DNA of 64,000 bases. It comes from a candidate division WOR-3 bacterium. GTDB taxonomy: Bacteria > Hydrothermota > UBA3073. The notes under the pieces are model-generated. The model searched no databases. It was not told the origin of the DNA and worked only from the letters and a program-made list of their open reading frames with translations. Position numbers and translations under genes: made by a program. The stretch covers positions 1,839 to 65,838 of the forward strand of contig JAGMCL010000039.1 of the NCBI GenBank assembly GCA_023129165.1, written 5' to 3'. Within the stretch, counting starts at the first letter, position 1; each line of letters opens with the position of its first letter. Below, one piece after another: positions 3,898 to 42,463 of this stretch.

Positions 3898-4094
3898 ACT
3901 AATGGAATAATATAAGGAATATAAACGAACTGCCTGCTATTTTGGCGTACACCATAGAGTATTCTATGGAGTGCCTGCCTGCGGTAGGCAGGCGTTAACC
4001 ATGTTAACGCATAGCTGTGACCCCATAGAGTATTTCTCCACAGGGTAAACGCGGTCACAGCACTCCAAAAATGGTTTGAGATAGTGCTGAGTAG

Positions 4095-7000
4095 TTAATT
4101 TGTGGAGTATACAGGAAGGAAGACCTTAAAAACAGAACCTTTACCCAACTCACTTTCGACATTTATCCAGCCATCGTGTTGTTTAATAATACCAAAAACA
4201 GTAGATAAACCAAGTCCGGTACCCTTTCCAACATCTTTAGTACTAAAAAAAGGCTCGAAGATGTGTGAAATGATTTTCCTATCCATACCGATTCCTGTGT
4301 CTGTAACAGATAGGCAGACAAATTTTCCGGGTCGTGCTTCGCGTATGGTTTGACAATCCTTTTTCTTCAGGGTCACATTTTCTGTTTTAATAGTGAGCTT
4401 TCCTCCTTTAGGCATGGCATCTTTGGCATTGACTCCCAGATTCATGATTATCTGTTCAATATTTCCTTTATTGCCCTGTACCATCCAGATGTCGGATTGC
4501 AGCTCAATGTTAACTTTGATATTTTTACCAAAGAGCTGGCTGAGCATTTTTAATAAATCATCAACTATTTCATTTATGTTAAGGGAGGTGAACTCTATTG
4601 GCTCTCTACGACTGAAAAGGAGTAACTGGTTTGTGAGACCTGTTCCACGTTTAGAAGCATCATTTATGTGGCATAGAAACTTATGTAGAAGGTCCGTGTT
4701 TTTTATATTCTCAATCGACAGGTCAGTATACCCTTTGATAGTCGTCAACAGGTTGTTGAAATCATGAGCAATTCCTCCGGCTAATCTCCCTATAGATTCC
4801 ATCTTTTGTGCCTGTAAAAACTGGTCACGTATCTTCTCTTTTTCTTCTTCTGCCTTTTTACGATCCTTCATCTCTTTCCTCAATTGCTCATTGGTAATAC
4901 TTAATTCGGAAGTTCGCTCATCTACTCTTATCTCTAATTCTTCTTTGATCTTTTCTACCTTCTCTTTTTCCTCTTTTAATTGTCTGGTTCGGACATCAAC
5001 TTCCTTCTCTAATATTCTTTGTCGTCTTTCCAAATTTACGATACGCATTTTGACAGAAGCATAAATGGTACCTATCCCTACTATTATACAAAATAGATAA
5101 AACCACCAGGTTCTCCAGAAAGGAGGGATTATTCTAAAACTATAGGTAGATAGATTTTTATTCCATAGACCATCACCGTTGCAAGCTTTTACCTTGAATG
5201 TATATTTCCTGGATGGCAAATTTGAGTAGGTAATATAGGTTTCTTTAGTTATTGGTGACCAATTTTTATCAACTCCTTCAAGTTTATATTGATATCTTAC
5301 TTTTTCAGGGTTGGTTAGACTTATGCCTATGAAATCAAACGTTATATGGTTTTGGTTATAGAGTAATTTCAAGCCAATTGGTAAACCTGATTTTTTACTG
5401 ATACTATCGGTGTAGGTAGACCAATCGACATCTTCGAAAAAGAGACGCAAATTTGTAATATGTGTGAGTGGTTCCACTGTATTTGGCTTATCTTCCCTGG
5501 GGTTGTATTTCACAACTCCTTTTATTGTGCCAAACCATATGTTGCCTTTACTATCTTTACAAACTGCGTTTTGATTACATTCTATACCGATAAAACCCTC
5601 TTCTTTACCATAATGTTTGAATGTTTTTTTTCCTGTTTTATTATACTCTGAAATATCGAGTTTGTCTATTCCCCTGTTTGTACCTATCCATAGGTTCCCT
5701 GTGTCATCAAAAACCATTGAAAGTACTGCATCGTCACATAAGCCAACCTCGGATGTGAAGGTCTCAAATGAGCCAGGCTCTCCATTATTAGAATAAATAT
5801 GTTTTAAAACCCCACCACCATAGGTACCAATCCATATATTTCCTTCCTTATCTTTCCTAAGACACATAATAGCATTACTACTTAGGCCCTCTTTTGTGGT
5901 ATAATTAATAAACGCTTTGCCATCATATTTACTTATACCACCACCATCAGTTCCAAACCACATATTTCCGTCTTTATCTTCCAAAATAGACATTACAATA
6001 TTATTACCTAAGCCATCTTTTGTAGTAAAGCTTATAAAGGATTTTCCATTATATCTACATACACCACCACCATCAGTTCCAAACCACATATTTCCTTTTT
6101 GGTCCTCAGTAATAGAATGTATGCTATTACTACTCAATCCCTCTTTTGTAGTATAATTAGTAAAAGTATCTCCATCATATTTAATTAAACCACCGCTATT
6201 ACAACCAAACCACATATTTCCTTTTTGGTCCTCAAAAACAGACATAATAAAATCGTCGCTTAAGCCATCTTTTATTGTATAGTTAATAAAATTTCTTCCG
6301 TTATATTTACTTACTCCCCCTCCGTATGTTCCAAACCACATATTTCCTTTTTGGTCCTCAAAAATAGAATAGATAGTATTATTATTTAGACCATCTTTAG
6401 TAGTATAATAGATAAAAGTATCTCCACCATATTTACATACACCACCATCAGTTCCTATCCATATATTTCCTTCTCTATCCTCTAAAAAATACCATATTGA
6501 ATTATTACTTAACCCATCTTTTGTGGTGTAGTTAATAAAGGTTTTTCCATCGTATTTATATACACCTTTGCCATTAGTCCCAAACCACATATTTCCTTCC
6601 TGATCCTCTAAAATAGAGTAAATTGTATTTTCAGCTAACCCTTTTTCTAAAGTGAAATCTGTAAAGGTTATTCTGTCATATTTACTAATACCAACATCAG
6701 ACCCAAACCATAGGTTTCCTTTACTATCTTCAAGGATATAAAAGATGTTATTACTATTAAGACCATCTTTAGTTGTAAAATTAGTAAAGGTTGCTCCATC
6801 ATATTTTGTTACACCACCGCCGCCAGTCCCAAACCATAGGTTACCATCTTTATCCTCTAAGATCGACCAGATTGTATTATTACTTAAGTTCTCGTTTGTG
6901 GTTATTGTAGTGAATTTCGCTCCGTCATAATTATTTACACCTTCACCAGTCCCAAACCATAGGTTACCATCTTTATCCTCTAAGATCGACCAGATTGTAT

Positions 7001-29194: not shown

Positions 29195-30260
29195 TTAGGT
29201 ATTCTTTGACAGCAGGTACTCTTTTATAAAGTCATCTATTTCTCCACCCATAACTCTCTCAACATTGCCAGTCTTATGACCAGTGCGATGGTCCTTTATA
29301 AGCTTATATGGATGAAGCACATAAGAACGTATCTCTCTACCCCAGCCAATTTCTTTCTTGTCCTTCTCGAGCTTCTTTAATTTCTTCCTTTCCTCTTCTC
29401 TCTTTATCTCATAGAGTTTTGCTCTTAGAACCTTTAATGCGTTTACTCTGTTTTGATACTGTGAGCGTTCACTCTGGCAGGTTACAACTATTTTGGTTGG
29501 AATATGAGTAATTCTAACTGCAGTGCTTAATTTATTCACATTCTGTCCTCCTGGTCCAGATGAACGGAATGTATCCATCCTTAATTCAGTCTCTTTAATT
29601 TCTATTTCTGCCGTATCTTCGATGACAGGATATACAAAACAGGATGCGAATGATGTGTGTCTTCTCGCCCCAGAATTAAAGGGAGATATACGCACTAATC
29701 TATGAATGCCTGTTTCAGATTTTAGATATCCGTATGCATATTCTCCCTTTATTTCGATTGTGACATCCTTGATGCCTGCAACGTCTCCTGGTTCAAGGTC
29801 GAGAATATTGGAGGAGAATTTATGCCTTTCTACCCATCTTAGATACATACGAAGAAGCATCTCTGCCCAATCACATGCCTCTGTTCCTCCTGCACCAGGA
29901 TGTATGCTGAGTATGGCATCGTTTTTATCATCTTTATTGTTCAGGGTAAATTGTATCTCAAAATCATCTATTTTTTTTTCGAGTGTCTCTATTTCCTCTG
30001 TAACCTCTTCTGTGTCTTCTATCATGGAAGTTAATTCTTTAGTATCTATTATGTCTTTTTTCAGATTCTCAAAAGTGGACAGAATATTTTTGATATTAGA
30101 TAATTCTTTTGTAATTTCCTGAGCTCTAATATTATCGTTCCATAAATCAGGTTTTACAGCCTTTTTTTCGAGTTCAGAGAGTCTTTTCCTTAATTTATCT
30201 AGGTCAAAGAAACCTCCCGAGCTTATCTACTCGCTCAATCAATGTATCTATATTACTCAT
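29195..30260 (-). CDS. prfB: Peptide chain release factor 2, requiring the conserved programmed +1 ribosomal frameshift at CTT TGA C (complement of 30203-30209).
   Basis: Frame 0 from the ATG (complement of 30258-30260): MSNIDTLIERVDKLGRFL, then in-frame TGA, with an SD-like GGGAGG 3 nt upstream of CTT. The +1 frame continues DLDKLRKRLSELEKK... into the 276 aa ORF. That ORF carries the SPF motif (ISPFNSGARRHTSF) and GGQ (SGPGGQNVNK). AGGAGG RBS before the ATG. Confidence 0.85.
30203..30209 (-). promoter_or_regulatory. prfB: prfB programmed +1 frameshift site CUU UGA C, with an upstream SD-like GGGAGG.
   Basis: Read directly: ...CTC GGG AGG TTT CTT TGA CCT AGA TAA. The +1 frame continues into the RF2 body. 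Confidence 0.85.
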
Positions 30261-33391: not shown

Positions 33392-33978
33392 TCACAGCAT
33401 AGCTTCCAATCTTGGCTTTATGATATTATCAACACGGCAAATCTTGGCGTATTGCATAATCTCTTTTGGCTTTGTGCCTTTCTCCGTTACAGCCACCTTG
33501 AGAGCTTTCCGTGCAGTATTTATACCTATTCTATTGCGAAACTTGAAACAATCGGCAATAGTTTTGGCAAGATTGTAAACTCTGATTTTATGTCCCTCGA
33601 GTTTATATTCCTCTATCTCTGCTTTCCATACCTCGGGCGCAAAGCGGTAAAACTTGACTGGAGGATATTTAATTCTATTTGCATGGGTACTCTGTGGAAT
33701 AGCAATTTCCACATATTTGGGGATTTCACTGGTTGCTTCGTAAAAAGACAAAGCGGAAAGAAGACAAATAACGCCCCGTGGTGCCTGAAGAGATGCAATA
33801 ATTAGATCAGGATGAGACCCTGGTTCGTAATCAACTACGCGATAAAGACCTTGGGCAATCCTTTCGACTTTTCCCTCTTTTTCAGGAGCAATAAGCGAAT
33901 CCGGATGAAACCCAGCCTTTCAGTATAGCAGAAAACCTAACCACGCCGCCCTGGTTCTGGAAAAAACTCATAAGCTCC
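33392..33978 (-). pseudogene. AbiEi-family (type IV TA antitoxin/COG5340-like) gene, interrupted by a 1-nt frameshift near 33915. No AbiEii partner is present.
   Basis: From the ATG (complement of about 33976-33978): MSFFQNQGGVVRFSAILK, then a frame change, then AGFHPDSLIAPEKEGKVERIAQGLYRVVDYEPGSHPDLIIASLQAPRGVICLLSALSFYEATSEIPKY... This continues into the 119 aa ORF. It matches the AbiEi N-terminal wHTH pattern (G.VR...L...G.....L..L...G.LER..RG.YR...........L......P.GVICLLSAL.FH.LT). Frame 0 hits TGA after ...GFAYCS. Confidence 0.5.
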
Positions 33979-34277: not shown

Positions 34278-34727
34278 TTATATATATTGCTTTAATTGCT
34301 TTTTTCTTCTCGCCAAAGCATTCGTAACTTCTTTGGCACATAATAGCGCGTCTTTCTTTATTTTGAAATCCCAAAATCTAAAAACTTTCCAGCCATCTTT
34401 TCTTAATTTTCTATTGACTCTTTTGTCTCGGGCGATATTGTCTTCGATTTTTTTGTACCAAAAACTTTTTCTGACTTTTATTTTTTTCTTTTCCTTCGAC
34501 CAATTGAAACCGTGCCAAAATGAGGAATCGCAAAAAACTGCAATCTTCTGCAGTCTCCAACAGAAATCGGGCGTGCCGAGTACACCCCTTTTATTTTTAC
34601 GATAGCCCCGCAAACCAGACGCCCAAAGCGCTCGCCCCATGATCTTTTCAATTTCGGTCCCTTTTGCCCTTACATGGGACATTTTGTAGGCGACAATTTC
34701 CTTTTTACTTCTCTTCAAATGAGTCAT
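34278..34727 (-). CDS. vsr: Very-short-patch repair endonuclease (T:G mismatch endonuclease).
   Basis: MSHVRAKGTEIEKIMGRALW...TPDFCWRLQKIAVFCDSSFWHGFNWSK...FWYKKIEDNIARDKRVNRKLRKDGWKVFRFWD matches the Vsr pattern (MS.IR.K.T.PE...R..L...G.R.......GKPD.V.P..K.A.FV.GCFWH.H.C......K....FW..K...N..RD......L...GW.VL.VWE). Confidence 0.8.
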   Translation of the reverse strand: MTHLKRSKKEIVAYKMSHVRAKGTEIEKIMGRALWASGLRGYRKNKRGVLGTPDFCWRLQKIAVFCDSSFWHGFNWSKEKKKIKVRKSFWYKKIEDNIARDKRVNRKLRKDGWKVFRFWDFKIKKDALLCAKEVTNALARRKKQLKQYI

Positions 34728-34749: not shown

Positions 34750-36636
34750 TCAACTATTTTTTATATCTACATAATCTTTTATTTTGCGGATGTTTTCTTC
34801 CCGAGTTCTTTTTTTATATTCCAATCTGTTACACATATCCTCGACTTTTGACGCAAATTTATCGCATTCAACCCTAGTCATAGATAAACCGTCTTTGGTT
34901 CGAATGCTAGTATGCCATTCAACATCTGTATTGAGAGGTCTAGCAGGTGTATGTCCCTTGATATTAAAAACCTTATGATCCCTACGTGTTATCCAACCAG
35001 CTCCAACTTCTGTTACAGCACCCCATGCTTTCGCCATATCTTTACTGGTTACATAAATAACATATATTTTTTCGGCTGAATAACTTTCAACGAAAAATGT
35101 TCTTAAATAATCATATACTTCTACCCCTTCAGGGATTCTGCTAATTTCATCATCACAATTTGTATATATGATATCTTCTGGAGGAACACGATTAAACAAC
35201 AATAAACTGTAGATAACGTCCGATAGGTCTTTGTCATCTTTTGTGTGGCATATTAGAATCTTCTTTTTCTGAGCATCTACCTTCTTTTTTATCCCAACGA
35301 TAGGAAGAAAAATATTCATCTCATCTTCAATGATTTTCTTCATTTTTGTCAATGTATTTTTATCACTTTGATTTATCATTTCGGTAATTCTCCTGGTCGC
35401 GCTACCAGATGTTTCTTTCTTATATTTATCAACCAATTTTCTTAGCTCTCTTTCTTTTTGTTCTTGTTTCTTTAATTTCTCTTTTTCTTTCTCCTCTTTG
35501 TGATAGTTAGCATAAACGGTTCTAATTTCGACAATGTCGGGTAATAATTTTTTGGCAACAAACGAAATCACTTCCTGATATCTCGGATCATCTGTTTTAT
35601 ATCCCTGCCGATTACTTAATGCCATATCCGGCAACTCTGTCTCTTCAAATAAATCCACATGAAGTTGACCAACAACATAAACTTCTTGAAGCTTATTTTT
35701 TCCGACAACGGGTAGTATATTATACTCACCAATTTTGCTATTGGATAACAACGAAATAAAATTGTCAGGAAAGTCGCCATGCATTGCTTTCCTTCCTCTT
35801 GTGGTCTTGTATGCGCCAACCCAACCTTTTATGATAAGATTGTATTCCTTTTCTTTTCCATCTTTATTTCTAAGTTTCATTGGCTTCTTTTTTTCTTTTC
35901 GCACTTGCAATAATTTCTTTTCTTTGTCTGGATAATCGTTATTAAAAAAGTTAGCCAAGTATTCAAAATCGCTACCAATAATAATTAGTCCCCCCAGTTG
36001 CTTAATCATTTCTCGATCAAAGCTTTTTATGATTTCCTCTTTGTCATTCTGGATTATATGTATTCTAAAATTTCTGTTTATAAGAGGGAATATTTTGAGT
36101 AGATTTTTCTTAATCGTCTCAAAGCTTTTATTCAATCCATAATGAGGCTCTTTCATTATTATTGAGGTACCGTGTTTTTTAATCTTTTCAAATCGCATGT
36201 CTTTCTCTTCCAAGGGATCCAGAATTCTGTCATCTCTAACGTATATTGTAAAAATGAATCCTAATTTTTTACCGTCTTTGATTGTCTGAACCCATATATT
36301 GTCCGAAACCGAAAGTGCTGCCAGTTTTCCAACGCCTTTTCTACCTATTTTCCGGCGCCCTTTTTTTGTATACGAATCTTTTTTTGTTGTACGAGTTTCA
36401 GCTGCCACATTCAAGTATATTTTTGTATCTTCATATGACATCCCAATTCCATCATCCTCAACAATAATGGAATCAGGTTTTGCTATAATATATACATTTC
36501 TTGCATCGGCATCATAAGCATTGGCAATCAACTCAGCAAGAATATAATAAATATTCGTGTAAAGACTTGGCCCCAATAACCTCAATATTTTAGGATCAAG
36601 TTGCAATTCATATTTACGTTCTGATTGGTTATTCAT
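34750..36636 (-). CDS. GHKL-superfamily ATPase (MORC/MutL-like HATPase_c_3) with a long Lys-rich middle region and an unassigned C-terminal domain of about 180 aa. Candidate restriction/effector partner of the adjacent Dcm.
   Basis: Bergerat fold boxes: N-box ELIANAYDADA, G1 DDGIGM, G2 GRKGVGKLAA. Lys/Glu-rich coiled-coil-like segment (EKEKEKLKKQEQKERELRKL). The C-terminal segment (KKKILICHTKDDKDLSDVIYSLLLFNRVPPEDIIYTNCDDEISRIPEGVEVYDYLRTFFVES...) begins like a TIR-like/alpha-beta nucleotide-binding fold, but I cannot assign it confidently. The gene overlaps the dcm stop by 4 nt. Confidence 0.6.
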   Translation of the reverse strand: MNNQSERKYELQLDPKILRLLGPSLYTNIYYILAELIANAYDADARNVYIIAKPDSIIVEDDGIGMSYEDTKIYLNVAAETRTTKKDSYTKKGRRKIGRKGVGKLAALSVSDNIWVQTIKDGKKLGFIFTIYVRDDRILDPLEEKDMRFEKIKKHGTSIIMKEPHYGLNKSFETIKKNLLKIFPLINRNFRIHIIQNDKEEIIKSFDREMIKQLGGLIIIGSDFEYLANFFNNDYPDKEKKLLQVRKEKKKPMKLRNKDGKEKEYNLIIKGWVGAYKTTRGRKAMHGDFPDNFISLLSNSKIGEYNILPVVGKNKLQEVYVVGQLHVDLFEETELPDMALSNRQGYKTDDPRYQEVISFVAKKLLPDIVEIRTVYANYHKEEKEKEKLKKQEQKERELRKLVDKYKKETSGSATRRITEMINQSDKNTLTKMKKIIEDEMNIFLPIVGIKKKVDAQKKKILICHTKDDKDLSDVIYSLLLFNRVPPEDIIYTNCDDEISRIPEGVEVYDYLRTFFVESYSAEKIYVIYVTSKDMAKAWGAVTEVGAGWITRRDHKVFNIKGHTPARPLNTDVEWHTSIRTKDGLSMTRVECDKFASKVEDMCNRLEYKKRTREENIRKIKDYVDIKNS

Positions 36637-37772
36637 AAATACCCCTCAAAATGTTTAATAATGCTTTTTCCGATTATCTCACCCAAGCGAACCGGCACAG
36701 CATTTCCTATGTACTTCCCCAATCTTTTAAGTTCTACCGGTGAAGTAAAAGGGATAAATTTATATTTTTTAGGAAAAGTTTGTAAAATTGCGCCCTCACG
36801 TATTGATATGGCTCGATCTTGTTCGGGGTGACCAAATCGTCCCGTCCCAAAACTAAAAAACTGTGTTGTAATCGTAGGTGCTGGTTTATCCCACTCCATC
36901 CTTGCATAAACAGAACCATATGTGTTGCCGGTTTCTTTTCTATGACAATCTGCTCTTAGATTCACATCCCAATCTCTCCATGAACCACCTGGTACCGATT
37001 TCTTTATTCTCTTGAGATTGACTTTCGAGAGAGTTGCCGATTTATGCAATCTATCTTTTTTTGATGAAGTACCGGCTTTAATTGGCTCTAAATTACCGGT
37101 AGCCATTTTGACTGTTTTATAATTTTCCGGCTTATGTGTCGGAGCTATTAATTTTATTTCTCCTAACTGCGAAGCCAATAATACCAACCTTCTTCTATTT
37201 TGTGGAATTCCGTAATCGGGGCAATAAACATTTTGCCAATTGATATAATACCCTTTTGATTTGAGACCGTCGACAAAATCGGAGAAAACTGTATGTTTAA
37301 TTATTTGAGGAACATTTTCCATCGAAACAACATCAGGTTCCACTTCCTTAATCAATTTTATAAAATGATAAAGCAATCCCCAATCGTCTTTAGTCTCTCT
37401 ATCTTTTTCCTTTTGAGTATACTTGGAGAATGGTTGACAGGGAGCACAACCTACCAAAACCATCAGACTTTCAGCAGGATATAGTTTTGAAATTTCCTTT
37501 GATGTGATTTCTTTGATACTCTTGTGAATAAACGATGCGCCATTATTCTCTTCAAATGCAAACTTACATTTTTCATCGACATCAACTCCGGCTACGACTT
37601 TAATACCTGACTTCTGCAAACCATAAGTCAAACCCCCAACTCCACAGAACAAATCCACCGCAACTATGGATAACTTCTTTCTTTTTCTAATCATTGCCTT
37701 TTCTTCCTCTCCACTAAAATTGTTTCTCATACCAGACCTTAATAATTCAATCATTGATTTCTTATTCCTCAC
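36633..37772 (-). CDS. dcm: DNA (cytosine-5)-methyltransferase, Dcm-type.
   Basis: Motif I (VDLFCGVGGLTYGLQKSG), motif IV PC (GCAPCQPFS), motif VI ENVPQI. Followed by the GHKL gene and vsr. Confidence 0.85.
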   Translation of the reverse strand: MRNKKSMIELLRSGMRNNFSGEEEKAMIRKRKKLSIVAVDLFCGVGGLTYGLQKSGIKVVAGVDVDEKCKFAFEENNGASFIHKSIKEITSKEISKLYPAESLMVLVGCAPCQPFSKYTQKEKDRETKDDWGLLYHFIKLIKEVEPDVVSMENVPQIIKHTVFSDFVDGLKSKGYYINWQNVYCPDYGIPQNRRRLVLLASQLGEIKLIAPTHKPENYKTVKMATGNLEPIKAGTSSKKDRLHKSATLSKVNLKRIKKSVPGGSWRDWDVNLRADCHRKETGNTYGSVYARMEWDKPAPTITTQFFSFGTGRFGHPEQDRAISIREGAILQTFPKKYKFIPFTSPVELKRLGKYIGNAVPVRLGEIIGKSIIKHFEGYL

Positions 37773-37778
37773 GATTAA

Positions 37779-39212
37779 TTATTTTATACTTAGCTTTTTT
37801 AATTCCGAGTCCATCCACATTTGGGCTTGCTGTTCGTCTTTTTCGATAGCCATTTCAACGCCTTGTTTAGCAATGTCAAGTAACCGCTTTGAAAACTCAC
37901 GATTGCAAAAGGAATCATTAACCGTTTCGGCGATTTTCTTTTGTTTCCCAATTGGTAAAACAGGAATAAGTGTATTCTTAACCTGATCCACACGCCAGTG
38001 ATTTATAACCGAACCACCAGCGTCACGCTCTATCTGTTTTTGTACAATTACCGAATTCAACACCAGTGTCAAATACTCTGGATATAATTTATCTTCATCT
38101 TCAACTGTTAACCGCAATATGCCACCTGACGGAATCATTTTTTCTGGCTCATCTTTCAAATAATATGCAATGCCCGGAGTGGCGTCTTTTGATAACAATA
38201 TTTCACCCTTTTTCGGTTGATTTTGTTTTATTGTCCTGTATAATTCCTCGCTTAAATACTGTTGATTGCCATCCTTTAAGCCAAACTTTGAAAGATTGCT
38301 CACGCGCAAGAATAAAATTCCACTTTCTTGATATGCTCCACTTCCGGGCTCAATACATTTATTAATCGAGACTAAATCACCCAAACAATAATACCCTTTT
38401 GTTGAGATAATCCTTTGTACTATCTCATCATACACAGGCTGAAAGTACTCGGCATCATTTCGATCTGCGGATTGCGTGTCGGAGTAATTCTTCACAAATG
38501 AAAGCCGATGTTTCGGCCTCCAGTTTAACAAGTTAAGCTCGGATAAGAGCATCTGCTCGGCTTGAGAATAAAAAAGATGAGCAGATTGAATTTTATTGAA
38601 TGCTTTTGTGACTAAACCTGAGACAACTTTATAAAATATATCTAAAAAAACAGGTAAGCGTAAATTCTCAATGTCAGAAACATTTAATTTTGGCTGTGCG
38701 TTTCCGCTGATCAATCTTAATACTTGTATTTGACCAATTTTAGAATTTAAGTGGGATAAAATATAGTCTCTATAAAAATCCGGTAAATTCTCCGGTAATC
38801 TTATTCCAAGATTATTCTCGCTTATATTACAATTGCCGATTTCGGGTGTTACTTTTGAAACAACACCAATTGTATTACCAACTTTTGAAAGAACTAAGTC
38901 CCCAATTTTTAGTTGAGACGATGTGAGTCTTTTATTATCTTCTTCAGATATATAAATCAAATCATCTTTGGATATAAAAAAATCTTTTAAATCGGATATT
39001 CTGACAAATGGTATCCCGTTTGTTAGATATGCTTCGCTTTTTAAAGATGAGCCGAATGGTCCACTTACGACCTTACACCCTATCTCTTTTAATGTTTTTC
39101 CATGACGCTGGCTAATAATGCTTTCATACTTTAAGGCAGTAGGGTGAAAATATTCAGCATCAAGCCTGAATATACCTTTTACATCTTTAAATTTTACAAC
39201 TGAATATTGCAT
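37779..39212 (-). CDS. hsdS: Type I-like restriction-modification specificity subunit with two target-recognition domains.
   Basis: 477 aa with duplicated Methylase_S architecture: two variable TRDs separated by the conserved central/distal repeats (LSELNLLNWRP and the C-terminal EMAIEKDEQQAQMWMDSELKKL coiled coil). N-terminus typical of HsdS (GIFRLDAEYF...). Confidence 0.8.
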   Translation of the reverse strand: MQYSVVKFKDVKGIFRLDAEYFHPTALKYESIISQRHGKTLKEIGCKVVSGPFGSSLKSEAYLTNGIPFVRISDLKDFFISKDDLIYISEEDNKRLTSSQLKIGDLVLSKVGNTIGVVSKVTPEIGNCNISENNLGIRLPENLPDFYRDYILSHLNSKIGQIQVLRLISGNAQPKLNVSDIENLRLPVFLDIFYKVVSGLVTKAFNKIQSAHLFYSQAEQMLLSELNLLNWRPKHRLSFVKNYSDTQSADRNDAEYFQPVYDEIVQRIISTKGYYCLGDLVSINKCIEPGSGAYQESGILFLRVSNLSKFGLKDGNQQYLSEELYRTIKQNQPKKGEILLSKDATPGIAYYLKDEPEKMIPSGGILRLTVEDEDKLYPEYLTLVLNSVIVQKQIERDAGGSVINHWRVDQVKNTLIPVLPIGKQKKIAETVNDSFCNREFSKRLLDIAKQGVEMAIEKDEQQAQMWMDSELKKLSIK

Positions 39213-39214
39213 AG

Positions 39215-40051
39215 TTATTTATTAGTTATTTGAAAGATCGCCAACTTCAAAACCTGCCAGCATAATTTAGCCGTGTGCTCATCTGGATTAAATTGCTGAT
39301 TTGCTTGCTGATATGGGTGAATATAATTTCTAAAATCTCTCAATGAATGGCTGAATTTCTTTACATCTTCTTTTAAAAACCCAATTTCCTTAGCAACATC
39401 TATAAAATTACTTAGCGTCCATTTATGAAATTGTAAAACTTTTCCGTTTTTATCTTTTGGACTGGTTTTTGCCATATTGAATTTTTGCGGATTGCTTGTT
39501 GCAACACCAAGCAATATTCCTTCAAGCGTGCTTCCGCATAGAAAGATTGTTGCTAAAGCCGCTTTTGAATTTAAGCATTTTTTAATTTCTTCAAGTCTCT
39601 GCTCAAGTATACTCGTTATTATCCCATCTAATTTTAACGAACCAATTGAAACTTCATTAAATTCCTTTTTTAAAAATTCATCCTCTGTAATGTTTTTGTT
39701 TTGCGTTTGTTTACCAAGCAATCTATCACTAATCTTCTTAGCCTTGTCAATAAGATTTTGAGGGAAATCGTTTTGTTGAAGATTGTCAATTAAAATTTGG
39801 TTTTCAATGTACTCAACAAGTTTTTCTATAGATTTGCCAACTAAAGAATCGCCAGCCACTTGCCAAAAACCTCTCATGCAATTGGCTTTTGATCCGCTTG
39901 CATAGTTATATTTTTCATCGTAGATATTAATGCCGACATCATCATTAAAAAACTCCCCCATTGTCCTATCGGAGAAATTAAGGACATAACCTCCGCTCAT
40001 TTGAAAAAGCTTCTCTAACGCTTGCTTATCGTTTGTAGTTAGACTTGCCAT
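39215..40051 (-). CDS. HEPN-like (Abi/DUF4145-like) protein inserted between hsdM and hsdS.
   Basis: The C-terminal about 120 aa (ALATIFLCGSTLEGILLGVA...KFSHSLRDFRNYIHPYQQ...AKLCWQVLKLAIFQI) contains an R-x(4-6)-H HEPN-type motif in an all-helical context. The position between M and S genes matches the known tendency of HEPN/Abi genes to embed in type I RM operons. The N-terminal 150 aa is unassigned. Confidence 0.35.
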   Translation of the reverse strand: MASLTTNDKQALEKLFQMSGGYVLNFSDRTMGEFFNDDVGINIYDEKYNYASGSKANCMRGFWQVAGDSLVGKSIEKLVEYIENQILIDNLQQNDFPQNLIDKAKKISDRLLGKQTQNKNITEDEFLKKEFNEVSIGSLKLDGIITSILEQRLEEIKKCLNSKAALATIFLCGSTLEGILLGVATSNPQKFNMAKTSPKDKNGKVLQFHKWTLSNFIDVAKEIGFLKEDVKKFSHSLRDFRNYIHPYQQANQQFNPDEHTAKLCWQVLKLAIFQITNK

Positions 40052-40054
40052 GGA

Positions 40055-42145
40055 CTATCTCCAAAAACTTAATTTCTCTTTTTTCGCCCAATCAATAAAC
40101 GCTTCGGCAATACCATCTGCAAGCTCGCCGTTGTGATTTTGCAAGTCATGATCCACAATCAAATGACCAAATTTATCCAACATAGGCTTACCGTCACAAT
40201 TTTTGACATAAATATAATCCCCTGAATTATCTTTCCCCGCCTTCTCTGATACACCAAAAAATATTGGGTAATCTTTCTGTTTGGGACATAATTCATCATC
40301 CCATTTCTGAACGAACAACATGCTTGTCTTTGTGCCGGTATGAGGTTTAAAAGTATTTACATGCAGACCCACAACCGCAATGATTCGCGCCTTATCGGCA
40401 ATATATTCCCGAATGTCTTTATCCGATGTATTGTTAAATCTTCCTTGAGGTAAAACAATCGCCATACGTCCACCGGGCTTGATAAAATCAAGATTACGCT
40501 CGATAAAAAGAATATCCCGACCGACCTTTGACTTGGGCTTGTTTTTATTATTATAACCAAGCTCGTATTTATGGATTATACGGGATTCCTTAATATCTCC
40601 GGCAAAGGGTGGATTTGCCATCAAAATATCAAACAGAAAATCTGTATTTCCTTCGCTGTTTTTTTTCAATTCTTTTAAACGCTTATATCCGCCTCCATAA
40701 GTCTCGATCCAATTCGGATTTTTCGTTGTCTCGTCCCAACGGTCATAATCAAGTGTGTTTAAATGTAAAACATTTGTCTCACCGTCTCCTGCAATGAGAT
40801 TTAAGGTGCGTGCCACACGCACCACTTTCTCGTCGAAATCGATGCCGAACACTTTCAATACATCTTCTTTTTCTTCGGCAGATATCTCCTTGTTTTCGAA
40901 CAAATGGCCAGTTAAATAAAAAATTGTATGAACGGTAAATCCGCAGGATCCGGCAGCAGTATCGATCATATATTCGCCCTTTTTGGGATTGAGCATCTTA
41001 ACGCACATATCGATTACGTGACGAGGCGTAAAATACTGCCCTTTTTCACCTTTGGAAGATTTGCTGACCAAATATTCGAATGCCTCATCGATAACCTGTA
41101 AATTGGAATTGAAAAGCTTTACGTCTTGAAGGCTCGATATACATATGGAAAGATGCGAAGGTGAAAGATCGATTTTACTTTCATCGGGAAACACACCGGT
41201 CCATTTCCTTTTTGCTTCATCGAATAGCTTTTGAATTTTCTTTTTTAATTCTCCTTCCGACTGACCGGTATTCCTGAATTCCAGGATCCTGAACGATGAA
41301 TCATCCACCCCTTGAATAGCTTCTTTGATTTCATCGAATGAATTTTCTTTCGGCTTTCCATATTTAGCTTTAGGCTCGGCAATCATAGGATAATCTTTAT
41401 CCCTTAAAAAATAATTTATAACCACCCTATCCTTCTGGCTTTTGTGTTCATCATATAATTTAGTGAATATCAGCTTAAAAACTTCTTCGAATACATCGAC
41501 TCCAGCATTGGCAAGAACCTCATCTTCCATATCCTGGATAATCGTCTTGAGGGATTTCCCCTCCGAAGGAATTTTATCTTTGATAATTAGGTCTTTAATC
41601 GTATATCGTTCTTTAAGGATATCCGCAAGAGTCTGACTGGCATTTGGAATATCGGTTATATCCTCGAAAAAATTAGGGTCTTTGCGGTTATAATGGGAAA
41701 TCTGACCTCCGTTTGTCCATACGGCTATAGGCGCACCAGTAGCATTACAATAACTCTTGAGCTGTTCCTTGCCATCTTTCAGCTTGGGTTTTTTAACCTC
41801 GATGATGATATATTCGATGGTCGGACGCTCTTTATCGAAAACTACGATATCGGAAGATTTCGTCTGCCGTCCAAACTGCACAGGATGCTCGAATCTAATT
41901 CTTTTCTTGGGATAGCCATAATAATTTATCAATTTTGCAGTATAAAGCTGGCGTACGACTTCTTCGGGTTTAAGTTGAATTTCCTTTTCTCGAATTATGC
42001 ACTCCACATATAGCTTGCCTTTTTTTTCGATAATCTTTTTCTCAAGAACCGTTATTTCTTCAGGCGCAAATATCGAAAGATTGTATTGTGAATCTTTTAA
42101 TATGGAAAGCAGAGTAATTTTATCGTCACTTTTTGCCATAAACAC
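40055..42145 (-). CDS. hsdM: N6-adenine DNA methyltransferase (HsdM-like, gamma class) fused to an N-terminal PD-(D/E)xK (HSDR_N-like) nuclease domain.
   Basis: N-terminal about 170 aa: ...SDIVVFDKERPTIEYIIIEVKKPKLK (D...E-V-K nuclease signature) within an HSDR_N-like fold. Then the HsdM N-domain and catalytic domain with motif I (IDTAAGSCGF) and motif IV NPPF (MANPPFAGD). 696 aa, versus about 500 aa for a plain HsdM. Confidence 0.75.
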   Translation of the reverse strand: MFMAKSDDKITLLSILKDSQYNLSIFAPEEITVLEKKIIEKKGKLYVECIIREKEIQLKPEEVVRQLYTAKLINYYGYPKKRIRFEHPVQFGRQTKSSDIVVFDKERPTIEYIIIEVKKPKLKDGKEQLKSYCNATGAPIAVWTNGGQISHYNRKDPNFFEDITDIPNASQTLADILKERYTIKDLIIKDKIPSEGKSLKTIIQDMEDEVLANAGVDVFEEVFKLIFTKLYDEHKSQKDRVVINYFLRDKDYPMIAEPKAKYGKPKENSFDEIKEAIQGVDDSSFRILEFRNTGQSEGELKKKIQKLFDEAKRKWTGVFPDESKIDLSPSHLSICISSLQDVKLFNSNLQVIDEAFEYLVSKSSKGEKGQYFTPRHVIDMCVKMLNPKKGEYMIDTAAGSCGFTVHTIFYLTGHLFENKEISAEEKEDVLKVFGIDFDEKVVRVARTLNLIAGDGETNVLHLNTLDYDRWDETTKNPNWIETYGGGYKRLKELKKNSEGNTDFLFDILMANPPFAGDIKESRIIHKYELGYNNKNKPKSKVGRDILFIERNLDFIKPGGRMAIVLPQGRFNNTSDKDIREYIADKARIIAVVGLHVNTFKPHTGTKTSMLFVQKWDDELCPKQKDYPIFFGVSEKAGKDNSGDYIYVKNCDGKPMLDKFGHLIVDHDLQNHNGELADGIAEAFIDWAKKEKLSFWR

Positions 42146-42463
42146 CTCGTTTCTTCAAAAACTTTTCGATGTGATAGGACTGTATCTTGTTAGGATTGTT
42201 GGAATGTCAATATGTACAACATATTATAACACGAAACTCAGAGAATGTCAAGCAATTGAGTTAAATTGTCGTATTACTAAACTATACAATAGTTTACAAC
42301 AATTTTATGGTTCATAAATGGACAATTCTCAAGAATTTTTTAGTGTTTTTCGGATTAGATTCAAGATACATAATAATCAATACTGAAGAATTTAGAAACA
42401 GGTCTTCCAGTATGAAGAGTGAAGAAACAATTGTAATCTGCGGCAATCTGCGTCCTATTATTC

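Follow-up and report, generated by a model that had tools for sequence, protein, structure and literature searches.

A GHKL ATPase-TIR protein coupled to a Dcm-type cytosine methyltransferase: a candidate NAD+-degrading partner in a restriction-modification-like module

Introduction

Restriction-modification (R-M) and abortive infection are commonly viewed as distinct layers of bacterial immunity. The locus described here raises the question of what stands beside a cytosine methyltransferase when a restriction enzyme does not. It lies in a stretch of 64,000 nucleotides from a candidate division WOR-3 bacterium (assembly GCA_023129165.1, contig JAGMCL010000039.1, positions 1,839 to 65,838), hereafter the window. 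No separate restriction endonuclease gene was found beside the Dcm methyltransferase gene of the window, as had been noted in a preliminary description of this DNA, in which the product of the gene next to dcm was taken to be the likely restriction or effector partner. An NCBI protein 100% identical to that product, which is 628 aa long, carries as its sole annotation 'ATP-binding protein [candidate division WOR-3 bacterium]'. The analysis reported here asked what this protein is made of, how firmly it is tied to the methyltransferase, and what it may do.

Results

The 628-aa protein is encoded between Dcm and Vsr in a six-gene cluster

The ORF begins with an ATG, is read from the minus strand, and was found exactly where the preliminary description had placed it, between the genes for Dcm and Vsr. 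The elements of the locus considered below are:

34278 to 34727, minus strand: Vsr very-short-patch-repair endonuclease (TIGR00632, 108.6 bits, cut-off 97.85; Pfam Vsr, 1.1e-16)
34750 to 36636, minus strand: the entire gene of the 628-aa GHKL-S5-stalk-TIR protein (ORF list; AF2 model, mean pLDDT 79)
36633 to 37772, minus strand: Dcm, C5 cytosine DNA methyltransferase (Pfam DNA_methylase, 1.6e-59; TIGR00675, 134.7 bits)
42223 to 42251, minus strand: candidate promoter of the six-gene cluster (12/12 matches to TTGACA-17-TATAAT, with an extended -10 TG; a consensus match only)

More than 2,500 homologues of the 628-aa protein were found, the best 120 of which were full length throughout and 53-100% identical to it; the ORF is a real, conserved gene. 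It forms part of a cluster of six same-strand genes, in the order HsdM-like, DUF4145-like, HsdS-like, Dcm, GHKL-TIR and Vsr, with intergenic gaps of 3, 2, 6, -4 and 22 bp, respectively. In the window sequence the stop codon of dcm and the ATG of the GHKL-TIR gene share the tetranucleotide ATGA (the 4-bp overlap), and a Shine-Dalgarno sequence, GAGGGG, is readable at this junction. Vsr is an accessory of Dcm that mends the T:G mismatches arising through m5C deamination. The top PADLOC model for the window Dcm was DrmMII (7e-101); drmA, drmB and drmC (or drmD) were absent from the window neighbours scanned with PADLOC, and the DISARM core is thus missing there. The window copy of the GHKL-TIR gene neighbours further defence-type genes.

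The N-terminal part is a GHKL ATPase module followed by a helical stalk

The first 447 residues comprise three elements:

36142 to 36612, minus strand: GHKL (Bergerat) ATPase domain, aa ~9-165 (Pfam HATPase_c_3, 1.5e-18)
35587 to 36141, minus strand: S5/transducer-like middle domain, aa ~166-350 (conserved loop D337-M-A-L-S-N-R343-Q-G-Y-K347)
35296 to 35586, minus strand: Lys/Glu-rich helical stalk, aa 351-447 (AF2: continuous helix 351-420, then helices 427-447)

The HATPase_c_3 match scored 67.6 bits (cut-off 25). The motifs read in the preliminary description (ELIANAYDADA, DDGIGM and GRKGVGKLAA) were all present, within aa 34-107. They contain the N-box (E35, N39, D42), G1 (D61xGxG65) and G2 (G98RKGxGK104) residues, to which G156-T157 can be added. 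The N-box, G1 and G2 residues were invariant in 40 family members, and also in 36 sequences covering all three of the C-terminal classes described below. The S5/transducer domain follows directly after the Bergerat fold, an arrangement as in MutL, MORC and GyrB. By its motifs and domain order the protein is a member of the GHKL (Bergerat-fold) ATPase superfamily, and it is predicted to bind and hydrolyse ATP. The Lys/Glu-rich segment that the same description had reported after the ATPase corresponds to the modelled helices of the stalk, which probably serve as a coiled-coil or dimerisation element.

Relationship to well-known GHKL+S5 ATPases is distant: sequence identity to MORC, MutL and SMCHD1 is just 12-18%, and the eukaryotic reader domains, as well as the C-terminal endonuclease of MutL, are missing from the window protein. 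The segment nearest to the MORC-specific motif GhXhhpXXRhl is G271-W-V-G-A-Y-K-T-T-R280, in which the Arg lies one position off register; according to Iyer et al. (PMC2292703), paraMORCs are without the MORC-specific S5 motif.

The front end is shared with BbrUII/HgiDII restriction enzymes and bears exchangeable C-termini

By profile comparison, the N-terminal ~400 aa share homology with the BbrUII/HgiDII family of type II restriction enzymes, of which R.HgiDII was treated by Orlowski and Bujnicki in 2008 (PMC2441816). The model NF050001 ('BbrUII/HgiDII family restriction enzyme') matched aa 9-427 (4.9e-63), with a score of 213.7 bits, under the 550-bit cut-off, and an alignment over profile positions 1-404 of 659; true members scored 804.6 (L019) and 706.4 bits (L021) over positions 1-659. 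No recognisable nuclease domain was found in the window protein, either by Pfam or by C-terminal profile comparison. With its nuclease domain missing and its score too low, the protein would not be counted as a BbrUII/HgiDII equivalog. What the two have in common is the GHKL and S5 domains with their conserved ATPase and transducer motifs, and the gene order, in which a close relative of the Dcm is encoded immediately upstream and a Vsr often follows. The difference lies at the other end, where the BbrUII/HgiDII enzymes bear a ~250-aa C-terminal PD-(D/E)XK-type domain (D-I-x-Y...E-L-K) while the window protein has the stalk plus a TIR domain. The DNA or methylation reader of HgiDII could sit in the nuclease domain that is absent from the window protein.

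Related loci were retrieved by an alignment-based profile search of genome contigs, a single-protein query having given no relatives. Across the 70 loci thus obtained, the ATPase module bears one of three C-termini: a PD-(D/E)XK nuclease (class A), an Rx4H HEPN-like domain, or a TIR domain (class C). The three are mutually unrelated (hhalign probability <1%; 0.1% for class A against class C), and two of them are typical abortive-infection effector types. The class-A C-terminal profile gave no match on the TIR class when run on the Listeria homologue. A cryptic TIR in the HgiDII-type C-terminal domain was discarded on the same hhalign value and on the PD-(D/E)XK signature of class A. When the N-terminal modules were placed in a neighbour-joining tree, the clades corresponded exactly to the C-terminal class. 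The TIR proteins formed a ~630-aa and a ~700-aa clade, as far apart from each other as either was from the other classes, which leaves a single fusion event undecidable from this tree.

The C-terminus is a TIR domain related to that of SpbK

The C-terminal ~175 aa, which start with ...QKKKILICHTKDDKDL..., contain the following:

34753 to 35274, minus strand: SpbK-type TIR domain, aa 455-628 (PADLOC, PDB sequence search, fold searches)
34993 to 35013, minus strand: TIR alpha-C motif T542-E543-V-G545-A-G-W548 (aligns to SpbK N191-E192-M-G194-A-T-W197)

The fold is that of a flavodoxin-like TIR domain, and the nearest TIR domain, by sequence and by structure alike, is that of SpbK (PDB 9phb), the abortive-infection TIR NADase of the Bacillus subtilis element ICEBs1 (PMC12847820); the sequence match covers only aa 456-561 of the window protein, against the SpbK TIR region. 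Pfam returned zero matches for the isolated C-terminal domain, even at E-values up to 10, its TIR models remaining below threshold; a protein of the related ~700-aa subclass (L037) matched Pfam TIR_2 at 1.5e-4 (22.7 bits, cut-off 28).

Residues E543, G545 and W548 were invariant in 40/40 homologues. E543 is predicted to be the catalytic glutamate, and G545 and W548 are predicted to belong to the assembly interface. In SpbK, E192 lines the modelled NAD+ site (E192A was among the mutants made), and with the substitutions N191R, G194R and W197A filaments were lost along with NADase activity and defence (PMC12847820). Of the nine residues at the modelled NAD+ site of SpbK, six are identical or conservatively replaced in the window protein, according to our own mapping, and the two proteins further share an IIYT strand and an IPxG...YL BB-loop region. 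SpbK activity also needs D158 (PMC12847820); the corresponding position is Gly/Glu here, so D158 is not conserved. The loop that follows the first TIR strand reads H464-T-K-D-D468, with D468 conserved at ≥90% and H464 at <90%. For the loop at this place Iyer et al. (PMC2292703) described the highly conserved pattern Hx[ST]xD; SpbK and L037 match it exactly, and its His is Gln in three loci (L003, L006 and L011). Among the conserved TIR residues, no metal-binding nuclease motif was evident. The AF2 model is that of a monomer (pTM 0.56) and is uninformative on assembly. Because the catalytic Glu and the interface residues are invariant, it can be argued that the TIR domain is active; by analogy with SpbK, that activity would be an NADase.

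The gene is coupled to a methyltransferase across distant hosts

A dcm gene was present within 4 kb of the GHKL gene in 62/70 related loci, and abutted it upstream in 53 of these 70; in most loci, close Dcm homologues (E-values 1e-94 to 1e-154) were encoded immediately upstream. Thus, as in type II R-M systems, a cognate methyltransferase adjoins the gene in the R position. The gene consistently comes with a methylase of its own, and a reading of the window protein as a Type IV (modification-dependent) enzyme was rejected on that ground. Vsr is frequent yet dispensable, since it was found within 5 kb in just 23/70 loci (5/11 among those of the ~630-aa TIR class). The Dcm-then-GHKL-TIR pair was also present in an ANME-1 archaeon, a Patescibacterium, Treponema socranskii and Listeria. 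An intact GHKL-TIR copy is carried by L. monocytogenes; in strain FDAARGOS_57 the pair lies at about 1,893,257-1,896,252 of NZ_CP030101.1. The Patescibacterium and Treponema pairs have housekeeping genes on either side, and an adjacent Vsr was absent from the Patescibacterial, Treponema and Listeria copies. The distribution of the family is sporadic and cross-domain. No TIR-class copy was found in the phage collection, only a class-A protein ('ParaMORC3') plus Dcm in a P2-like phage; a P2-like phage hotspot is among the sites of class A.

The two TIR-class loci that lack Dcm had the DISARM methylase DrmMI directly upstream, again with a 4-bp overlap. Three TIR-class loci (L006, L008 and L084) lay within DISARM operons, so GHKL-TIR might be an add-on to other methylation-based systems rather than a self-sufficient R component. 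In one metagenome-assembled genome (L009) dcm was disrupted by two frameshifts and the TIR protein was intact; if the disruption is real, it would argue that the TIR protein is not lethal without the methylase.

These observations bear on the preliminary description, which had likened the C-terminus to TIR-like or other alpha/beta nucleotide-processing domains and named two outcomes that would speak against its reading: a C-terminal match to a non-defence domain, and routine occurrence of the gene without a methyltransferase neighbour. The closest match proved to be the TIR domain of an abortive-infection protein and, contrary to the second outcome, most loci have a nearby dcm. The suggested restriction or effector role is supported by the BbrUII/HgiDII-homologous front end, the TIR domain and the linkage to Dcm.

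Discussion

On balance, and with modest confidence, we incline to the reading that Dcm and the 628-aa protein together make up an R-M-like defence module of two genes, with the TIR protein in the 'R' slot, where it would respond to unmethylated DNA by degrading NAD+. Dcm would place a 5-methylcytosine mark on the host DNA, with Vsr as a repair accessory, and the 628-aa protein would stand in for the restriction enzyme. The MORC-like GHKL+S5 module of the protein would engage unmarked DNA by ATP-driven dimerisation or clamping. The DNA would not be cut; rather, the helical stalk and the clustering of the protein on DNA would gather the SpbK-type TIR domains, which would assemble head-to-tail into an active NADase able to hydrolyse NAD+ to ADPR or cADPR. 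The resulting loss of NAD+ would arrest or kill the infected cell, i.e. cause abortive infection. More tentatively, and with doubt outweighing conviction, the unit might be described as an 'epigenetic abortive-infection' system, a methylation-based discriminator wired to a TIR NADase, in which unmethylated DNA would lead to NAD+ collapse and to dormancy or death. A search of the literature found no experimental work on GHKL-TIR proteins or on methylase-linked TIR NADases, and no biochemical or genetic data for any member.

An unlikely, though serious, alternative is that the protein is a genuine restriction endonuclease or other DNA-processing enzyme of a conventional type II R-M system, the TIR domain attacking DNA as a nuclease or base N-glycosidase; a DNA-attacking TIR domain was the reading put forward by Iyer et al. 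in 2008 (PMC2292703). Against it stand the closest characterised relative by sequence and structure, which is an NADase, the conservation here of its active-site Glu and assembly interface, and conserved TIR residues among which no metal-binding nuclease motif is evident. We know of no bacterial TIR domain that acts as a restriction nuclease. The protein might instead be an accessory or guard that binds or monitors the methyltransferase (Dcm or DrmMI) and fires its NADase in answer to a phage that inhibits or hijacks methylation-based immunity, in the manner of PrrC/RloC. Its translational coupling by a 4-bp overlap to either of two upstream methylases, Dcm or the unrelated N6-methylase DrmMI, would suit such a role, as would the three loci embedded in DISARM operons; the broken Dcm of L009 would be tolerable, and GHKL(paraMORC)-HEPN fusions in RM contexts have been proposed as PrrC/RloC analogues in a survey of HEPN domains (PMC3710099). 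This role is nevertheless quite improbable in our view, since the smallest unit, set between housekeeping genes, consists of Dcm plus GHKL-TIR alone, leaving no restriction enzyme to guard, and the nuclease-bearing sister class takes its name from enzymes that are themselves classed as type II restriction enzymes.

E. coli MutL stimulates the Vsr endonuclease in very-short-patch repair, and the window protein could be imagined as a MutL-like factor doing the same, with the TIR domain as a scaffold or nucleotide-binding regulatory domain. We consider this extremely improbable: Vsr is near only a minority of the loci, including those of the ~630-aa class, and is not adjacent to the gene in the Patescibacterium, Treponema or Listeria; the invariance of the catalytic Glu and of the interface residues points to an active TIR domain; the sister classes bear nuclease or HEPN-like effectors; and the sporadic cross-domain spread, the defence-type genes beside the window copy and the occurrence of class A in a P2-like phage hotspot all fit poorly with a repair function.

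The 2008 proposal of the paraMORC4 family predates knowledge of TIR NADase chemistry. That family of GHKL-S5-TIR proteins in RM neighbourhoods was a computer prediction (Iyer, Abhiman and Aravind 2008, Biol Direct 3:8; PMC2292703), and its TIR domain was proposed to provide a nuclease or ligand-binding site. The window protein resembles it in its GHKL domain with intact ATP-binding motifs, its S5 domain and C-terminal TIR, its sporadic distribution, and the presence of cytosine methylases and Vsr in its RM-type neighbourhoods. The first-strand loop H-T-K-D-D also recalls the Hx[ST]xD of paraMORC4, but the His highlighted there is not invariant in the family of the window protein. The latter appears to be a new member of this predicted kind, as judged from the published description of paraMORC4 rather than from its authors' alignment.

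Comparable arrangements are known in which one of the two ends differs. SpbK is a small protein encoded by a stand-alone gene, whose N-terminal domain binds the phage portal YonE and thereby clusters the TIR domains, whereas the window protein begins with a GHKL-S5-stalk module of 450 aa and is linked to a methyltransferase. In the GHKL-Shedu fusion VcSduA (earlier labelled paraMORC3), phage defence has been shown and residues of both the ATPase and the effector are needed (PMC12137116). There too an N-terminal GHKL ATPase governs a C-terminal effector within one polypeptide, but the effector is a DUF4263 PD-(D/E)XK nuclease, no methylase is linked, and the defence is reported as non-abortive. 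Vibrio cholerae WonAB (WASA) was rejected as a relative, its components being an ABC ATPase (WonA) and a small nuclease (WonB), as was membership of Hma or MADS, no match being obtained to models so named in PADLOC and NCBIfam. In short pAgo/TIR (SPARTA) systems, recognition of foreign DNA by a guide-loaded Argonaute leads to TIR oligomerisation, NAD+ depletion and abortive infection; in the window protein the sensor would instead be a methylation-based (epigenetic) discriminator of self and non-self. We know of no TIR system for which discrimination of this type has been shown.

One conserved ATPase module, usually paired with a cytosine methylase, thus bears a nuclease, an HEPN-like or a TIR domain. 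Annotation pipelines now call such proteins 'ATP-binding protein' or, via their N-terminal homology, type II restriction endonuclease, a label that probably does not suit the TIR and HEPN-like classes. If the TIR version is indeed an NADase set off by unmethylated DNA, a suicide or dormancy effector could be placed under the direct control of methylation-based recognition of self and non-self, and TIR biology would gain a new, DNA-state-dependent route of activation. Together with its nuclease and HEPN-like sister classes, the TIR version would then make up a family of GHKL sensors that are coupled to Dcm and carry exchangeable kill modules, some members being attached to DISARM. The mechanism of HgiDII-type restriction enzymes is, to our knowledge, unstudied; the module would shed light on the role of the GHKL domain in these enzymes and, possibly, on the way in which prokaryotic MORC relatives read epigenetic marks.

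Gene, neighbours and candidate promoter

An ORF of 628 aa was found on the minus strand where the preliminary description had placed it, flanked by a cytosine methyltransferase and a repair endonuclease gene whose assignments were borne out by Pfam and TIGR00632 matches:

34750-36636 (-): GHKL-TIR gene, ATG start, 628 aa
36633-37772 (-): Dcm, C5 cytosine methyltransferase (Pfam, 1.6e-59)
34278-34727 (-): Vsr endonuclease (TIGR00632, above cut-off)
42251->42223 (-): candidate promoter, perfect match to the sigma-70-type consensus

The Dcm stop and the GHKL-TIR ATG overlap in the sequence ATGA, preceded by a GAGGGG Shine-Dalgarno. The candidate promoter lies upstream of six same-strand genes in the order HsdM-like, DUF4145-like, HsdS-like, Dcm, GHKL-TIR and Vsr, separated by 3, 2, 6, -4 and 22 bp. 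The best NCBI match of the GHKL-TIR protein, with 100% identity, is an "ATP-binding protein" of a candidate division WOR-3 bacterium, this being its sole annotation. The top PADLOC model for Dcm was DrmMII (7e-101); no Drm core genes were found among the scanned neighbours in the window.

Behind the same candidate promoter, co-directional and tightly packed with Dcm, GHKL-TIR and Vsr, lies a Type I-like methylation module without HsdR (37779-42145, minus strand). It specifies a 696-aa HsdM-like protein (N6_Mtase with a PD-(D/E)XK-like HSDR_N_2 domain joined to its N-terminus), a 278-aa DUF4145-like protein (weak Pfam match, 0.004; DUF4145 is counted as a HEPN family, PMC3710099) and a 477-aa HsdS-like protein, and gave sub-threshold NCBIfam matches to MAD2 and MAD5 of MADS. 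At the edge of the island, a 119-aa ORF at 33392-33751 (-) aligns with AbiEi solely over its C-terminal half (81-197 of the 198 PADLOC profile positions, E 6e-41); since AbiEii is absent too, it looks like what is left of an AbiE toxin-antitoxin system. The prfB gene is a classical case of +1 programmed frameshifting; a release-factor-2-like ORF at 29195-30025 (-), with SPF and GGQ motifs, reaches only 276 aa in a single frame, and its N-terminal part presumably lies in another frame, as in prfB.

The window protein joins a GHKL ATPase to an SpbK-type TIR domain

All three Bergerat motifs (N-box, G1 and G2) lie within aa 34-107, and HATPase_c_3 of Pfam matched at 1.5e-18. The AlphaFold2 model (alignment of 40 homologues; mean pLDDT 79) starts with a GHKL domain, continues with a middle domain rich in beta structure and a helical stretch (a single very long helix at aa 351-420, then shorter helices to aa 447), and closes with a compact alpha/beta domain that begins at ∼aa 455. 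Structural comparison gave scores of 15.8 (280) for the MORC3 ATPase module, 15.7 (293) for that of MORC2 and 13.6 (260) for MutL, with SMCHD1 and Hsp90-family proteins in between, in agreement with the initial label "MORC/MutL-like".

The C-terminal domain, originally thought to be possibly TIR-like, is a TIR domain of the type found in SpbK, the abortive-infection NADase of Bacillus subtilis. The isolated domain was matched by the PADLOC spbK model (9.2e-17), phmmer retrieved the solved SpbK structure (9phb) with it, and when it was modelled alone (pLDDT 83) SpbK was the only significant Foldseek match (E 9.5e-7, TM 0.73). The Pfam TIR models did not detect this domain, and public annotation is therefore limited to HATPase_c_3; in a sister subclass of ∼700 aa, the Campylobacter concisus member gave a sub-threshold TIR_2 match (1.5e-4).

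SpbK yields ADPR and N1-cADPR, and its activity requires two-stranded head-to-tail TIR assemblies; E192, of which an E192A mutant has been made, is located at the modelled NAD+ site, while with the alpha-C helix substitutions N191R, G194R and W197A filaments no longer form and both NADase activity and defence are lost (PMC12847820). In the alignment, N191-E192-M-G194-A-T-W197 of SpbK corresponds to T542-E543-V-G545-A-G-W548 of the window protein. Among 40 homologues (54-100% identity), E543, G545 and W548 are invariant, as are E35/N39/D42 of the N-box, D61/G63/G65 of G1 and G98/G101/G103/K104 of G2; purifying selection thus acts on the ATPase as well as on the TIR active site. SpbK D158, in contrast, is not conserved; nor is the first-loop His universal, several members having Gln instead.

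More than 2,500 matches were present in a 90%-clustered database, the best 120 all being full length. An exhaustive search of 1.84 billion representatives with the TIR-domain profile yielded 655 clusters (E <= 1e-3), of which the top 54 are all members of the GHKL-TIR family (∼30 full-length clusters, 614-674 aa), the weaker ones being SpbK-like proteins of 250-380 aa and the subclass of ∼690-700 aa.

A restriction-enzyme front end with three C-terminal classes

NCBIfam NF050001, "BbrUII/HgiDII family restriction enzyme", matched aa 9-427 (4.9e-63), the alignment covering only profile positions 1-404 of 659 and scoring 213.7 bits, well under the 550-bit cut-off. R.HgiDII itself has an N-terminal GHKL domain and a C-terminal domain of unknown fold (Orlowski and Bujnicki 2008). 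An alignment-based scan for relatives, with one genome per species, provided 80 loci; when the parts that follow the shared module were clustered, three classes emerged.

Classes of GHKL proteins and presence of Dcm within 4 kb
Class A: 33 proteins (32 loci); ∼660 aa; true BbrUII/HgiDII members (706-805 bits); Dcm in 27/32 loci
Class B: 23 loci; ∼550 aa; conserved R-d-A-x-x-H-T, an Rx4H HEPN-like motif; Dcm in 22/23 loci
Class C: 15 loci plus the window; TIR; ∼630 aa (Dcm in 9/11 loci) and a ∼700-aa subclass (4/4 loci)
All classes: Dcm in 62/70 loci

Clustering joined 13 of the 15 class C loci with the window, L010 and L033 being placed by their TIR matches. The C-termini are mutually unrelated (hhalign probability <1%), that of class A bearing a PD-(D/E)XK signature (D-I-x-Y...E-L-K), while the GHKL motifs and the S5-domain loop D337...R343 are kept in every class. 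The deep clades of the shared-module tree correspond exactly to C-terminal class; the same front end carries swapped effectors.

The ∼150-aa C-terminal domain of class B (e.g. L041:8004-9671 and L059:3888-5543), in which Pfam found nothing, contains 'P-i-R-d-A-x-x-H-T', which suggests a HEPN-type RNase effector. In Acutalibacteraceae and Agathobacter, TIR proteins of the ∼700-aa subclass (L030:7965-10070, L033:7965-10067, L051:7965-10070) have an additional C-terminal tail with CxxC...CxC spacing, zinc-ribbon-like in look, and a more divergent Dcm partner (compared with the Dcm of the window, E 1e-12 to 1e-17).

Coupling to the methylase

The proposed partnership with a methyltransferase held across relatives, which do not routinely occur without one: a same-strand Dcm directly abuts upstream at 53 of 70 loci, while Vsr lies within 5 kb at 23. 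The order Dcm-TIR-Vsr recurs in an ANME-1 archaeon, and in a Patescibacterium and Treponema socranskii the Dcm-TIR pair stands alone with housekeeping genes on either side. The preliminary observation is confirmed and its interpretation supported. An intact pair is also present in the chromosome of Listeria monocytogenes FDAARGOS_57 (Dcm 55% identical, GHKL-TIR 48% over its full length). At L085 (NZ_CP030101.1, 1889330-1900460), positions 3928-6923 specify Dcm (351 aa) and GHKL-TIR (644 aa), with Vsr not adjacent; this 2.9 Mb record, labelled 'plasmid unnamed' in PLSDB, is evidently a chromosome, and the region is unannotated in the PLSDB table. In the P2-like E. coli phage PhiR44_1 (L086, PV340563.1, 3492-6540), a class A protein annotated 'ParaMORC3' and a convergent Dcm are bordered by gpQ (portal) and gpA (replication); the Dcm-linked GHKL module is therefore phage-mobile.

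Proposed mechanism and alternatives

The reading we favour, and consider somewhat probable, is a pair akin to R-M, whose TIR protein would act as an NADase when it meets DNA without the methyl mark, leading to arrest or death. The conserved unit would be Dcm plus GHKL-TIR, with the TIR protein filling the place of the restriction enzyme. The GHKL module would engage unmarked DNA in an ATP-dependent manner, clustering TIR domains through the stalk and neighbouring molecules; by analogy with SpbK, these may then assemble and hydrolyse NAD+, and its loss would arrest or kill the infected cell. Of the three effectors, the HEPN-like and TIR ones are of kinds typical of abortive infection, in keeping with a sensor whose kill domain can be exchanged.

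Alternatively, GHKL-TIR might serve methylation-based systems as a PrrC-like guard or an accessory. Its embedding in DISARM operons argues for this, with the following gene orders:

L006:473-15777 and L008:3580-15723 (the only TIR-class loci that lack Dcm; class-1 DISARM): DrmD-DrmMI-[GHKL-TIR]-DrmA-DrmB, 4-bp overlap with the DrmMI methylase
L084:1-7887: DrmA-DrmB-DrmC-Vsr-[GHKL-TIR], actinobacterial copy

So does a Pseudobutyrivibrio ruminis MAG (L009:2800-5717), where two frameshifts spread Dcm over three reading frames next to an intact downstream GHKL-TIR gene. This Dcm is either a real pseudogene or an assembly error (contig coverage ∼15x); a pseudogene would be relevant to whether the TIR protein is toxic in the absence of methylation. 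Even so, we regard a guard role as rather improbable. That the TIR domain itself acts on DNA, as in the proposal of Iyer et al. (2008), is also unlikely, if slightly less so, and a MutL-like helper of Vsr is very improbable, given the frequent absence of Vsr.

Relation to earlier predictions

In RM neighbourhoods with cytosine methylases and Vsr, Iyer, Abhiman and Aravind (2008) distinguished paraMORC1-5, of which paraMORC4 has a C-terminal TIR with an Hx[ST]xD loop, suggested to be a nuclease or ligand-binding site; a HEPN survey described Ymh-HEPN fused to paraMORCs, seen as PrrC/RloC analogues (PMC3710099). Given these fusions and the 'ParaMORC3' label of the phage class A protein, classes A-C plausibly map onto this scheme, and the window protein, whose architecture and RM-type neighbourhood agree with the published ones, is most likely paraMORC4. 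Its kind has thus already been predicted computationally and the hypothesis is not unprecedented; a literature search for experiments on any GHKL-TIR protein found none. The present analysis adds a specific tie between the TIR domain and SpbK, an NADase, and shows that the protein shares its front end with the HgiDII/BbrUII restriction enzymes. It also puts numbers on the methylase coupling, documents the association with DISARM and points to L. monocytogenes as a tractable host. The hypothesis put forward for GHKL-TIR is clearly defined, open to testing and appealing in its mechanism.
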